Source: Rhizodiscina lignyota (Eukaryota). Taken from it: a DNA stretch of 64,000 nt. Position 1 is the first letter of the stretch, and each line of letters starts with the position of its first letter. This document shows positions 31,489 to 44,014 of the stretch, piece after piece. The notes beneath the pieces are model-generated. The model was not told where the DNA came from. It did not search any database and saw only the letters and a program-made list of their open reading frames with translations. The DNA is taken from positions 682,001 to 746,000 of the forward strand of contig ML978131.1 in the NCBI GenBank assembly GCA_010015805.1, read 5' to 3'. The position numbers and the translations under genes were made by a program.

Positions 31489-32339
31489 TCAAGGTATCTC
31501 TGAGTCTCTCAGCTCTTTGCGCGCCTTGCGTTTCTCATCAATCTCCTCTTTCGCTCGGAAATATGCACTTAGCTTCCCAACAGGTCTGTCCCCTCCGAAC
31601 AAGGCCTTGTATCTATACATGAAAGCCTTGATCTCGGTATCCATCTTATCAAGTGGCGATGGCGCTGCACCCTCGCTCTCAAGACTGGAAATAGCGGCTT
31701 CCAGCATGTCTCGCTCCTCGAATTGGATCTGCTTGCTCAACTCCACTTCCCCTACTGTATGTCCCCAATCAGTCTCGTCGACCACGACCTTGAACTGCCC
31801 ATCGACCAACCAGGTCTGCCTGTGAGTAAACAACCACAGCATCTCCTTCAGTCCGAAATTGTCTAGTGTGCTCTTATCCTGCCTCCCTGCCCCCGCATCC
31901 GCGAGCGCACTATAGCCGATATCTCTGTGGGCGACTGATACTCCTCGAACCGCGAGTTGCGATAATCCCCGCCCCTATCGACTTTCGCTTCCCACCCAGC
32001 ATTCGTAGCAAGCCCTAGACTCCCTATCATCGTCTTATGTGGCACATCCCGATCGTTCATGAAGTACTGCTCGCGGAATCGGACCCAAACGCCTCTAGAG
32101 CAGAGGGCGGCATTATCATCGTAGTAGGTGTCGGTGATTCCTTCTGTGTTCAGTTTCTTCACACTCTGGAAGATGCAGACAGGCGGTAGTTCGGTATGCG
32201 GTTTAGCCAAAACGTCATTGGGGACAGTGATCTTGTTGGGAGAGGCGACATTTTCAGTGCGAAGGGCAGTGAGCAGGCGAGGTGTGGGTACGAATTTGCG
32301 CTCGGCCTCGAGGATTCGGGTGAGAAGTCTTCGAGACAT
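31489..32339 (-). pseudogene. CYTH-domain (thiamine-triphosphatase-like) protein with an apparent frameshift near 31860-31900 (real lesion or assembly error)
   Basis: EAERKF (ExExK), TDTYYD, GVWVRFR, WEAKV, RFEEY in the first ORF; DNFGL, WLVDGQFKVVVDETDWGHTVGEVEL, GKLSAYF in a second frame. Confidence 0.7.
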
Positions 32340-33415: not shown

Positions 33416-34230
33416 TCAGGCTCCCAGCAAGAGCCTGTACCACTTCGCAAAATTCTTGTACGACATCTCTGTCTCCTCTCCCGTATCAAAGTCTAGAAAC
33501 AAATGCTTGTAATTCTTTAGAATTTCAAAAATGTTCTGCTCGTATTCCGAATATCGTTTCTCAAACAGCTGCTCATCATCCGCCTCTCTCGCACGTGCCA
33601 GGTACCTTTCCTTCGCCAACCACTTGGAGCAATGTAGATGCAGCACTGCTTCTGGCTTCCCGAACGACCTCTCAAACTCCGCTGCTTGCGCGACATCCCG
33701 TGGGAATCCGTCAATGATGATGGCGCGTGGTGGTTGTGCGATGTGCTGGACCTTGAATTCAGGTCCATCTTTGACTGTCACAACTTTATTCTCATCGACG
33801 TTGTAATGCATGAAAATCTGCAGGACCAGCGGTCTGGTGCTTGTCGTTTTGTACAGATCCGGAGCAATGCGCGTCGCAATATGGTCCAACATAAGCGGGT
33901 CGTTGCACTCCAAGCCCAGTTCTACGGAATCAATCTTCAGCTTCAGAAGCGGCATGAGGACACATGCAGGGAGCAGGTCTCCGCTCGTGAGACGCGCTTC
34001 GACGATACTACGCAGGAGGTTCGGTCCTTCGCCTTGAGCATCGCGCACACTGCGGAGGAAGTCGCCCACGGACAGGTGGTAGAGATTGTGATCTTGAGCG
34101 AGGCGTTTGAGAAGGGTACCTTTGCCGGCACCCGGTGGACCTTGTACGTGAGGAGTTAGTATCTGCGTGTTCTGTTGAGGATTCAAATAGTTTGGAGTTC
34201 ACCTATTGCAAAAATGATGGGAATGCCCAT
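33416..34230 (-). CDS. Nucleoside monophosphate kinase, adenylate kinase / UMP-CMP kinase family (short LID); one intron 34141-34202
   Basis: Spliced N-terminus MGIPIIFAIGPPGAGKGT (P-loop), HLSVGDFLR, IIIDGFPR, RYLARAREADD; GT...CTAAC...AG intron restores the P-loop. Confidence 0.88.
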
Positions 34231-34753
34231 CTTGTTCAAAGCTGAATGTGGGTGTCGTGGAGACTGATAGGATTGAGAGGTTCTGGCTCCAGAGCAGGTG
34301 GACGCCTTTATGTATGGCAGCGATAAGTCGTTTGTGGAGTGAGAAACGGGAAAGCAGAGGAGGTTGAAAGGTATTCAATGCCGCTTGCAATGAAGCAATT
34401 GAATGCCGGAAAATTGAAAACAGCAACAAGTATTCTCATCGTTCAACAATGGCAGGTAACAAATGCACATTCATGGTCAATGAGAAGCATTGCATGCTGG
34501 TGATAGACGCTGTGAGGGAATAATGAATAGACAAGCAAACCTGTTGCGCGAGCCTCTGCAGCTAAGAAGTGGCCATAAAAGTTGTCTCAAACAATGAGAC
34601 AATGATTCCCTACCAAGCATGTGCTGTCCAAGAACAGAGCATTCAAACACGCATCACGGAATATATAATCTACGCATAGACCGTAAGTCTCGTTGAATCC
34701 TTAAGCACTTGCGTCCAGAAGATCTCCGGGAAGATCTTTCACTTTTTGTCACG
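34231..34753. promoter_or_regulatory. Short divergent intergenic region shared by the kinase and viperin genes
   Basis: Head-to-head ATGs ~520 bp apart; a TATA-like atatataa near 34660 upstream of viperin. Confidence 0.55.
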
Positions 34754-35788
34754 ATGTTGTCTTTCCAGCAAATCAAAGCCGTAGGAGGCATTTCCATCCT
34801 TCTCCTTGGTGGCGGCGCATACCTATTCCATGAGAAAATCGGCATCGTATTTACGAAGCTTCGGGATCGTCTTCCATTTTTGGCTCGTCGCAAAATTCCG
34901 GTCTCCGTCAACTACCACTTTACAAGGGTTTGCAACGCAGAATGCGGTTTCTGCTTCCACACAGCAAAGAGTTCCTACAGAGCTCCCTTGGAAGACGCCA
35001 AACTGGGTCTGCTCATGCTCAAACGCGCCGGGATGCGAAAGATGAATTTCGCCGGAGGAGAGCCGTTCATGTACCCCAAGTTCCTTGGCGAGCTGCTGGA
35101 ATTCTGTCGCGATGAGCTCCAGCTTGAGAGCATATCGATCGTGACCAACGGGACCAAGGTGACGGAGAAGTTCCTTGAAAAATACGGCCGATGCATCGAC
35201 ATTCTCGCCGTTTCGTGCGACTCGTTCGACGCAAAGACGAACATTGAGATTGGCCGCGGCAAAGACGGCGGAAACAGGGAGCAGCTCTTCCGAATTGCTG
35301 AGTGGTGTCATGAGTATGGCATCAAGTTCAAGCTCAACACGGTGGTCTGCAAGCTCAACTATCATGAGGACATGGTTGACACGGTGGAGCAGCTGGGTCC
35401 ATTCCGCTGGAAGTGTTTCCAGGTCCTGATGGTTGAAGGGGAGAACGACTCTGAGAAGACGCTACGAGATGTTAGGAAGTTCCAAATCACGGACGAGCAG
35501 TACGAGGAGTTCTGCGACCGCCACAAGCACCTGAAGTGCTTTGTACCAGAGTCAAACAAGGTGATGGCTGGTTCGTACTTGATACTGGATGAGTTTCTGC
35601 GTTTCCTTGACAAGGCTGACGGCATTGAGACTGCGTCTGACTCGATCCTTGAGGTTGGCGTACAGAAGGCTCTGGAGCAGGTCCGTTGGGATGAGGAAAG
35701 CTTTGAGAAGAGAGGTGGAGTCTACGACTGGAGCAAAGAAGTGGCAGCGGGATGCGGAGAAGGCTTGGACAAGGCGCTGGAGTTTTGA
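34754..35788 (+). CDS. RSAD2: Viperin / RSAD2-like radical SAM enzyme (ddhNTP synthase); intronless
   Basis: SVNYHFTRVCNAECGFCFHT (CxxxCxxC), NFAGGEPF, SIVTNG, DILAVSCDSFD, FKLNTVV, RWKCFQVL, VPESN..M.GSYLILDE..RFL, RGGVYDWSK; N-terminal hydrophobic helix. Confidence 0.95.
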   Translation: MLSFQQIKAVGGISILLLGGGAYLFHEKIGIVFTKLRDRLPFLARRKIPVSVNYHFTRVCNAECGFCFHTAKSSYRAPLEDAKLGLLMLKRAGMRKMNFAGGEPFMYPKFLGELLEFCRDELQLESISIVTNGTKVTEKFLEKYGRCIDILAVSCDSFDAKTNIEIGRGKDGGNREQLFRIAEWCHEYGIKFKLNTVVCKLNYHEDMVDTVEQLGPFRWKCFQVLMVEGENDSEKTLRDVRKFQITDEQYEEFCDRHKHLKCFVPESNKVMAGSYLILDEFLRFLDKADGIETASDSILEVGVQKALEQVRWDEESFEKRGGVYDWSKEVAAGCGEGLDKALEF

Positions 35789-42876: not shown

Positions 42877-44014
42877 ATGAAGCTCGAGCTTTCGGGCCCA
42901 CTGCCAGAAGCAGTGGCAAGTAAATTTCGTGAAGCAAAGTCGAAGGAGAGCCTCACATTCTCTCATACGGAGCTCGCAACAATATGCACGAGCTCCGGAA
43001 TACCGGTGAGTAAGTAGCAGTTCAAATTGTCGCTGGAAAATAAGTATGGTAGTTGACAAACATGGGATGGAACAGTTTCAGCTCCGCTACTGTCCAGCGC
43101 TTGCAAAGAAGCCTACACAAAATGACAAGCCAACTCCCTCTGAAAAGAAGCCCGACCCATTTCTAGACCCACCCGACGACCTCCTGATCACAAGGATCTC
43201 CTCTGCTACATCTTCTCACGTATTGGTATTGAATAAGTACCCTGTAATTGCCAACCATTTTATAATCGCCACAAGAGAGGACAAGCCGCAGACACACGTT
43301 CTAGAGGCAGAAGACCTTGAAGCTACATATCTGTGCTTGCATGAGTGGGAGAAAGATGGTGGAGGGAAGCGACTCTTCACGTTCTTCAATTCTGGAGAGC
43401 ACAGTGGCGCCAGTCAGCCGCATCGACATTTACAATTTCTACCGATAGAGAGCATGAAAGAAGGCGATGAAGACGGAGAATGGCAAGTCCTGTCGGATAG
43501 GATATCCGGTCGTTCAAGGAGGTACAGCGCGGGAGCTGCGGCCACAGGCCCATCACCCCAAACAGAACTCCCTTTCGCCTGCTTCTCTCGAGCGATTCCG
43601 CAAAATGCGAGTTCTGACCAGCTGTTTACCATCTACACCACGCTCCTTTCTGAAGCGACAGTGGCCGCAAGGTCTTATGCGCAAGCGCATCCAACAGATT
43701 TTGCGCTTCCCACTATCTCCGGAGAGTCTATTCCGGCACCAATATCTTATAACCTGGCAATGACTACGTCGTCAATGGTATTATGCCCACGAAGCAGCGA
43801 AGGAGTGGTATTGAAACAGCAGGACGGGTCAGAAGCCGGATATGTTGCCCTGAATGGCACGATTTTAGGCGGGACCCTAATGGTGAAGCTCAAAGAAGAG
43901 TGGGACATCCTGCGAGGAGATTCGACAGCCTTGGATTTGCTGCTGGCGGCAATTGGGATCCCTACAAGCGGTTCATCGAGCGAAGAGGTCGTCGAAAACG
44001 AGTCAAGATTGTAG
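42877..44014 (+). CDS. APA2: ATP adenylyltransferase / Ap4A phosphorylase (APA1/APA2 family); intron ~43006-43075
   Basis: FQLRYCPALAKKP, KPDPF, LVLNKYPVI..HF, FFNSGEHSGASQPHRHLQF (HxHxQ), SYNLAMT, LNGTILGGTLMVK. Confidence 0.88.

Follow-up and report, generated by a model that had tools for sequence, protein, structure and literature searches.

A head-to-head viperin and nucleotide kinase gene pair in Rhizodiscina lignyota, with a kinase from a fungal clade that adjoins the UMP-CMP kinases

A gene for viperin, an RSAD2-like radical S-adenosylmethionine (SAM) enzyme, and a gene for a nucleoside monophosphate (NMP) kinase stand head to head on contig ML978131.1 of Rhizodiscina lignyota, a Dothideomycete of the order Aulographales. 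The sequence analysed is a stretch of 64,000 nucleotides (nt) of this contig, here called the window, and all positions are given in window numbering; it is fungal because the kinase protein is 100% identical to an R. lignyota deposit named 'P-loop containing nucleoside triphosphate hydrolase protein'. The initial annotation had placed the two ATG codons about 520 base pairs (bp) apart in divergent orientation; exactly 523 bases lie between them, and all three parts of that viperin-kinase observation are confirmed. By tblastn the 64-kb window holds one viperin gene and one adenylate-kinase-family gene, and no further copy of either. The one sequencing run listed for the stretch is a DNA assembly in which a single identical contig spans it; this assembly is probably where the window comes from. 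The features of the locus are as follows.

34754..35788, plus strand: viperin gene, encoding a putative RSAD2-like radical-SAM 3'-deoxy-3',4'-didehydro-nucleoside triphosphate (ddhNTP) synthase; single exon, 344 amino acids plus stop
34931..34954, plus strand: codons of the CxxxCxxC motif (Cys60, Cys64, Cys67), coordinates counted from the ATG at 34754
34231..34753, no strand: divergent spacer between the start codons, 523 bp, GC 0.449
34203..34230, minus strand: kinase exon 1, 28 nt, with the ATG at 34230; encodes MGIPIIFAI and the first base of Gly10
34141..34202, minus strand: kinase intron, 62 nt, GTGAAC...TACTAAC...AAG, with a TACTAAC branch site
33416..34140, minus strand: kinase exon 2 with the stop codon; NMP kinase of the adenylate kinase family, member of the viperin-linked clade of fungi
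34115-34140, minus strand: kinase P-loop, sequence motif GPPGAGKGTL
33725..33928, minus strand: kinase segment with a lineage-specific insert, residues 81-148, between the NMP-binding helices and the DGFPR strand
33698-33712, minus strand: kinase sequence motif DGFPR

The viperin open reading frame (ORF) runs without an intron from its first ATG at 34754 to the last base of the stop codon at 35788, and its 344-residue product corresponds to cluster P0053 with 100% identity and 100% coverage. It matches the radical-SAM family PF04055 in Pfam (E 1.5e-18) and scores above the cut-off of the NCBIfam viperin family NF038283 (251.9 bits versus 180), but below that of the narrower model TIGR04278 (385.3 bits versus 450). 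In an alignment of 29 fungal viperins (alignment A3) it shares 54-63% identity with the others; all 29 have the cluster cysteines C60, C64 and C67, about 70 further columns are invariant as well, and a hydrophobic N-terminal segment is present in all 29, including the R. lignyota protein. By these sequence features the product is viperin, a putative ddhNTP synthase. Its C-terminus deviates in a single respect: 28 of the 29 aligned proteins end in tryptophan, and the R. lignyota copy, the sole exception, carries a Trp-to-Phe change and ends in Leu-Glu-Phe (35777-35788, GAG TTT TGA), with the rest of the tail conserved. A 2026 preprint ties the terminal tripeptide and tryptophan of viperin to substrate selection and iron-sulfur cluster delivery (10.64898/2026.09.10.750538). 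The viperins of Trichoderma virens and of an Aspergillus produce mainly ddhUTP, the didehydro form of uridine triphosphate (UTP), with traces of ddhCTP, that of cytidine triphosphate (CTP) (10.1101/2023.09.13.557418), and the enzyme of Thielavia terrestris takes CTP and UTP (PMC9642334; 10.64898/2026.09.10.750538). A metagenome scan for related loci yielded one viperin contig of 1,273 nt (L001) and a weak match of 24% (L002).

The kinase gene consists of two exons, and a plain ORF reading needs a small correction to include the 28-nt exon 1; the last base of the stop codon is 33416 on the minus strand. Removal of the intron restores the P-loop strand IIFAIGPPGAGKGT, matching the relatives, and the spliced product of exons 1 and 2 is, letter for letter, the deposited 250-residue protein P0001. 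The motifs that the initial annotation had read from the sequence are all present in this protein, namely GPPGAGKGT at residues 10-18, SVGDFLR at 33-39 and DGFPR at 153-157.

In Pfam the kinase matches the adenylate kinase family PF00406 (E 5.4e-20, 72.5 bits versus a cut-off of 26.8), and the same search, taken to E <= 0.01, did not match it to PF02223, the thymidylate-kinase family. Vertebrate CMPK2 is of the thymidylate-kinase type, as the initial annotation had stated, and we take it to carry PF02223. The R. lignyota kinase therefore represents a lineage other than CMPK2, and CMPK2 itself has been described as standing apart in phylogeny from both CMPK1 and adenylate kinases (10.1101/2023.09.13.557418). 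Within its own superfamily, the kinase fails the cut-offs of both TIGR01359, the UMP-CMP (uridine and cytidine monophosphate) kinase family (77.0 bits versus 207.6), and TIGR01360 (AK1; 77 bits versus 284.1). Five relatives of the same family score 89-129 bits on TIGR01359, all below 207.6, and the references P0319, P0314, P0327 and P0320 pass. P0319, a URA6-type representative with 227.5 bits on this model and 236 bits against yeast URA6 (1UKY), shares 26% identity with the R. lignyota kinase, for which the best sequence matches among solved structures are human AK5 (67.6 bits) and yeast URA6 (1UKY, 63.7 bits). An AlphaFold model of the kinase (pLDDT, the predicted local distance difference test score, 83.3) has yeast uridylate kinase 1UKY as its best fold match (E 8.7e-13; template-modelling (TM) score 0.80 by target), followed by AK1 and UMP/CMP kinases; the matches to 1UKY and AK1 have a probability of 1.00. 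In an alignment of 38 family sequences, D153, G154, P156, R157 and R205 (R. lignyota numbering) are invariant, and G10, P12, G13, G15, K16, T18, R39, R188 and R192 are at least 90% conserved. From this conservation pattern the protein looks like an active enzyme, constrained in its catalytic core and free elsewhere. Aligned with its relatives, it begins straight at the first strand without an N-terminal extension; for this reason it is probably cytosolic, unlike the mitochondrial CMPK2.

A profile search with the kinase, in which 8,000 candidates were scored, gave 396 proteins at E <= 1e-10, of which the best 120 were listed. Most of the top of the first list of protein representatives was taken up by multi-domain flagellar-type adenylate kinases, whose scores were summed, and thereafter only single-domain rows were used. 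Among the matches listed, all named relatives are from Pezizomycotina, apart from a small number of multi-domain proteins that likewise had summed scores. The motif after the P-loop is GKGTL in the family, as opposed to GKGTQ in the references of URA6 and adenylate-kinase type (119 L and 17 Q among 176 single-domain sequences), and the family members also share HLSVGD, versus HLSAGD in canonical URA6/CMPK1. With IQ-TREE a maximum-likelihood tree (68 rows, 211 columns) was built from 52 family rows, hand-picked to span the named genera, five UMP-CMP kinase and three AK1/AK5 reference rows labelled by passing NCBIfam cut-offs, two sub-threshold GKGTQ rows, and six bacterial adenylate kinases as outgroup. 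All 52 family rows, including the R. lignyota kinase, form one clade (support 100/99) on a stem of 0.69; it contains 12 rows for which linkage to viperin was seen by locus tag or contig. With only five UMP-CMP kinase references and several long-branch rows in the tree, the URA6/CMPK1-type rows form a clade of their own (support 97/90), which the family clade adjoins without falling within it, both lying inside a short group of AK1/AK5 and UMP-CMP kinases.

This tree, of a kind that the initial annotation had proposed as a check, together with the match to PF00406 and the lack of one to PF02223, supports its suggestion that a different kinase lineage was recruited independently beside viperin. 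Likewise, its view of the kinase as a divergent paralogue rather than the URA6 type agrees with the separate clade and the low TIGR01359 score. As judged from profiles and phylogeny, it is the CMPK1/URA6 side of the superfamily, and not CMPK2, that gave rise to the fungal kinases, which form a lineage apart from the sampled URA6-type enzymes. One further row of the tree, P0273 (225 amino acids), has the canonical GKGTQ and a sub-threshold 147.6 bits on TIGR01359, and is placed on the family side (84/58); it may be an intermediate or outlying relative of the family.

Linkage of this kinase family to viperin in other fungi was judged from organism names, locus tags and contigs of equal size shared between the best 120 of 2,181 viperin relatives and the best 120 of 396 kinase relatives. 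In these lists, 12 of 44 named viperins from other species are accompanied by a family kinase of the same organism on a contig of equal size, and in six of the 12 the locus tags are consecutive. The linked species are listed below.

Chlorociboria, B7494_g4878/g4879: viperin and kinase neighbours, consecutive tags
Chaetothyriales sp. CBS 132003, DV737_g4496/g4495: viperin and kinase neighbours, consecutive tags
Xylariales sp. No.14919, ANO14919_043260/043270: viperin and kinase neighbours, consecutive tags
Hymenoscyphus albidus, HYALB_00001736/00001737: viperin and kinase neighbours, consecutive tags
Neofusicoccum ribis, SLS56_011339/011338: viperin and kinase neighbours, consecutive tags
Xylographa pallens, MMC27_004320/004319: viperin and kinase neighbours, consecutive tags
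Melanomma, Hypoxylon sp. FL1150, Annulohypoxylon moriforme and Lachnellula occidentalis: linkage on the same contig
Glonium (8.4-kb contig) and Periconia (8.3-kb contig): linkage on the same contig

A further contig of 17,870 nt holds a viperin and a family kinase, which brings the total to 13 linked cases besides R. lignyota in the best-120 lists. The best 120 kinase matches included no kinase from the species of 31 of the 44 named viperins, which carries no weight either way. The linked fungi presumably span Leotiomycetes, Eurotiomycetes, Sordariomycetes, Dothideomycetes and Lecanoromycetes, and for this reason the linkage appears to be old and maintained, though not universal. Two of the kinases deserve separate mention. 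P0369 (SLS56_011338), adjacent to viperin in N. ribis, is annotated with 410 residues, about twice the usual length, so that either the protein is extended or fused, or its gene model is a merged one. In H. albidus, P0366 and P0362 (HYALB_00001737 beside viperin and HYALB_00002209 elsewhere) are sisters on short branches, which points to a recent duplication.

These data bear on two other explanations of the locus. The kinase could be the housekeeping URA6 of R. lignyota, unusually divergent and beside viperin by chance, as might be suggested by its being the single adenylate-kinase-family gene in the window and by the automatic naming of some family entries as 'uridylate kinase' or 'UMP-CMP kinase'. 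URA6 is an essential gene, conserved throughout the fungi. We consider this explanation extremely unlikely, given the mere 26% identity to P0319, a protein that itself reaches 236 bits against yeast URA6, the separate clade at 100/99, the linkage of that clade to viperin in 13 other cases, and the two family members of H. albidus, which are ill-suited to a single essential gene. Alternatively, the linkage could be inherited synteny of genes that are regulated and act independently, without functional coupling. Such a reading would accommodate at least one species that lacks the linkage and another with an extra, unlinked copy; it is nevertheless very improbable, as adjacency has been kept over five classes of Pezizomycotina despite a kinase identity of about 38%, and as a like pairing arose in animals with a different kinase, and elsewhere in eukaryotes as fusions, 18 viperin-kinase fusions having been reported (10.1101/2023.09.13.557418).

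The two partners differ strongly in their rate of evolution. Comparison of 14 linked viperin-kinase pairs, R. lignyota included, gave a mean pairwise identity of 58.0% (51-81%) for viperin versus 37.8% (26-70%) for the kinase over 91 species pairs, and kinase identity was below viperin identity in 91/91 of these. The kinase thus evolves much faster than viperin. This contrast is one of several observations that would fit a kinase which belongs to the viperin module but acts on modified nucleotides, such as salvaged ddhUMP/ddhCMP or ddhUDP/ddhCDP (the didehydro mono- and diphosphates), or on another nucleotide; a new specificity, or a regulatory or docking role, would in that case account for the rapid divergence and for the insert. 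In the same direction point the score of 77 bits, far under the UMP-CMP kinase cut-off of 207.6, the separate clade on its long stem of 0.69, and the change from GKGTQ to GKGTL following the P-loop. Moreover, the efficiency of human CMPK1 with ddhCMP is reported to be about 82-fold below that with CMP (PMC10436258), so that there could be something to gain from a specialised enzyme. On the other hand, the R. lignyota kinase has the same residues for phosphate binding and catalysis as ordinary NMP kinases, the UMP-CMP kinases are both the nearest clade and the best fold match, and no residue-level support for altered base or sugar recognition was obtained. On balance a substrate of this kind appears unlikely, though it deserves to be kept in mind.

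The R. lignyota kinase also stands out by an insert of about 57-68 residues within residues 81-148, where 15 aligned relatives have a gap. As a result, 143 residues separate the P-loop from DGFPR, versus a median of 87, and this is the sole value above 105 among 141 proteins. An annotation artefact, in the form of an unspliced in-frame intron, has to be considered here, since an in-frame GT..AG candidate of 180 nt (33749-33928, GTAGAA...TCCAG) would, if removed, give the kinase a length like that of its relatives. The 5' site of this candidate (GTAGAA) is poor, however, and the GC content at third codon positions (GC3) of the insert segment (0.603) equals that of the coding flanks (0.588 and 0.602), with stops in the other two frames, which speaks against an unspliced intron. 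So does P0189, an independent, N-terminally truncated representative from a library clustered at 50%, which spans the whole segment with 43% identity over 187 residues and 0 gaps. On the strength of the poor donor site, the coding-like GC3 and this gap-free alignment the intron was rejected, its chances being very small. P0189, in which both ends of the insert are conserved, is the sister of the R. lignyota kinase (100/98); from the gap-free alignment and the sister placement it follows that the insert is coding and at least as old as the split from P0189, so that, as far as can be read from the sequences, it is a coding element of the R. lignyota lineage. In the AlphaFold model the insert has a pLDDT of 49-71, versus 85-96 in the kinase core. 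No known domain beyond the kinase core was found in it with Pfam and NCBIfam, a features search of the ESM Atlas gave no usable match, and all structure rows of the Atlas had a TM score below 0.5.

The 523-bp spacer is presumed to hold the promoters of both genes. AT-rich, TATA-like stretches were seen by eye at 34661-34667 and 34306-34315; the first precedes the viperin ATG by about 90 bp and the second the kinase ATG by about 80 bp, an arrangement suggestive of a separate core promoter for each gene, the two being about 350 bp apart. The spacer also contains a 16-nt imperfect direct repeat (34368-34383 and 34393-34408, 81% identity, 25-nt spacing) that makes up a 10-nt inverted repeat as well, about 140-180 bp upstream of the kinase ATG; the repeat may be a shared regulatory site or due to chance.

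We propose that the locus is probably one copy of a two-gene antiviral module conserved in Pezizomycotina, consisting of viperin and a dedicated NMP kinase that feeds its nucleoside triphosphate (NTP) supply. This proposal builds on the observed gene identities, exon structure, separate clade, conserved linkage and faster evolution of the kinase, from which we infer substrate, product, metabolic coupling and co-regulation. Viperin would be a membrane-anchored radical-SAM enzyme that converts mainly UTP, and CTP in traces, to the chain-terminating 3'-deoxy-3',4'-didehydro nucleotide, as in characterised fungal homologues. The dedicated, cytosolic and divergently transcribed kinase would phosphorylate UMP and CMP to the diphosphates UDP and CDP, and nucleoside-diphosphate kinase, together with the viperin-linked kinase, would refill the pool of pyrimidine NTPs used by viperin. 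The kinase would thereby take the role of CMPK2 beside vertebrate RSAD2, filled by another kinase lineage; human CMPK2 has been reported to supply the substrate of viperin (10.1101/2023.09.13.557418). The common 523-bp spacer would drive the two genes together, permitting their joint induction.

Several observations weigh against this proposal. As the kinase fails the UMP-CMP kinase cut-off, UMP and CMP are putative substrates, and in alignment its LID segment is about four residues shorter than that of yeast URA6. In Diaporthe australafricana kinase and viperin are unlinked, Daus18300_006666 lying on a contig of 268,841 nt and Daus18300_004394 on one of 379,099 nt, and the second family kinase of H. 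albidus, HYALB_00002209, is on a contig other than that of viperin and likewise unlinked. Finally, the head-to-head orientation was seen at the R. lignyota locus only.

That another kinase lineage was recruited independently beside viperin in fungi has been in print since a 2023 preprint by Shomar et al. (10.1101/2023.09.13.557418), the only earlier statement of a fungal viperin-kinase linkage that our literature search gave. In its available passages, the kinases linked to fungal viperins are of CMPK1 type and of distinct origin, which is read as convergent evolution, and this pairing is tied to the preference of fungal viperins for UTP (10.1101/2023.09.13.557418). The R. lignyota locus resembles these systems in having an NMP kinase of the CMPK1/adenylate-kinase lineage, and not CMPK2, within three genes of viperin, of which its kinase is the immediate neighbour. 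Since the central evolutionary point has been published, the gain of the present analysis is incremental. The same passages do not mention a clade apart from URA6, the GKGTL signature, faster evolution, the orientation or the insert. Beyond the preprint, a curated cut-off and a tree place the kinases in a clade distinct from the URA6 type, and faster evolution of the kinase, an insert conserved in the R. lignyota lineage and a viperin ending in phenylalanine are added.

Comparison with the vertebrate pair shows both likeness and difference. In both cases an antiviral radical-SAM ddhNTP synthase lies beside a pyrimidine nucleotide kinase, the substrate of the fungal kinase being presumptive. 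The human RSAD2 and CMPK2 genes are in divergent orientation. Unlike RSAD2-CMPK2, the R. lignyota pair has a spacer of only 523 bp and a kinase that belongs to PF00406 without a match to PF02223. The vertebrate genes are neighbours under common regulation in the interferon response, and some organisms have the two fused (PMC10436258). CMPK2 carries a mitochondrial-targeting N-terminal domain, whereas the fungal kinase has no N-terminal extension, and the product of fungal viperins is mainly ddhUTP, versus ddhCTP in vertebrates (10.1101/2023.09.13.557418). With yeast URA6 and human CMPK1, which form the nearest clade, the R. lignyota kinase shares the fold, the P-loop, the NMP-binding arginine, DGFPR and the LID arginines; it differs from them in its score (77 versus 207.6 bits), in its 26% identity to P0319, and in GKGTL, HLSVGD, the shorter LID and the insert. 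Prokaryotic viperins (pVips) likewise combine a ddhNTP synthase with a neighbouring nucleotide kinase, linkage to a kinase being reported for 12% of bacterial and 5% of archaeal viperins (10.1101/2023.09.13.557418), and the R. lignyota viperin passes NF038283, a model that also covers prokaryotic viperins. The kinases linked to pVips are mostly related to CMPK2 (10.1101/2023.09.13.557418) and encoded in operons, whereas R. lignyota has two separately transcribed genes, one of them with an intron.

The genes that flank the pair, as identified with Pfam, encode a DUF3431 protein, an NAD-dependent epimerase, a DUF2838 protein, an MIF4G/MA3 protein, a zinc-type dehydrogenase and a diadenosine tetraphosphate (Ap4A) phosphorylase; these look ordinary, and the locus is therefore no defence island. 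The Ap4A phosphorylase / ATP adenylyltransferase (PF19327, PF09830) is encoded at 43046-44011 on the plus strand, about 7 kb from viperin, and the position of this nucleotide-metabolism gene is probably coincidental. One further gene lies next to the pair.

31489-32339, minus strand: two-ORF gene downstream of the kinase on the same strand, 158 and 117 amino acids

The two ORFs of this gene can be joined by many in-frame GT..AG introns, so that no single intron can be fixed. By protein-language-model features alone, its first ORF was likened to clusters of CYTH-domain proteins (0.91, 26/30 matches), with which it shares 151 features, fewer than the 170 typical of true members. Searches of Pfam, NCBIfam and PDB sequences gave no usable match for the gene, and its single-sequence AlphaFold model (pLDDT 39.9) is unusable. 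The start EAERKF and a later GEVE recall, in our judgement, the CYTH pattern. Together, these resemblances make a CYTH-like nature of the gene a weak lead. Viperin has been found fused to a predicted triphosphatase/cyclase domain in four eukaryotes (10.1101/2023.09.13.557418), and a CYTH-like third member of the module would, speculatively, echo these fusions. In a bolder and rather doubtful extension of the two-gene module, the viperin-linked kinases with GKGTL would be a separate, immune-dedicated paralogue family of Pezizomycotina rather than ordinary CMPK1, shaped by conflict with mycoviruses or by a shift to ddh-nucleotides; the insert would regulate the kinase or dock it to viperin, and a CYTH-like triphosphatase might be the third component.

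Viperin is among the few immune enzymes common to bacteria, archaea, fungi and animals. Gene linkages that are both functional and conserved are rare in eukaryotes, and the recurrent association of viperin with a nucleotide kinase is one of them. The R. lignyota locus provides an independent and well-delimited example of this pairing. The fungal pair may thus serve as a tractable system for the contribution of the kinase, be it in substrate supply, in the handling of modified nucleotides or in regulation.

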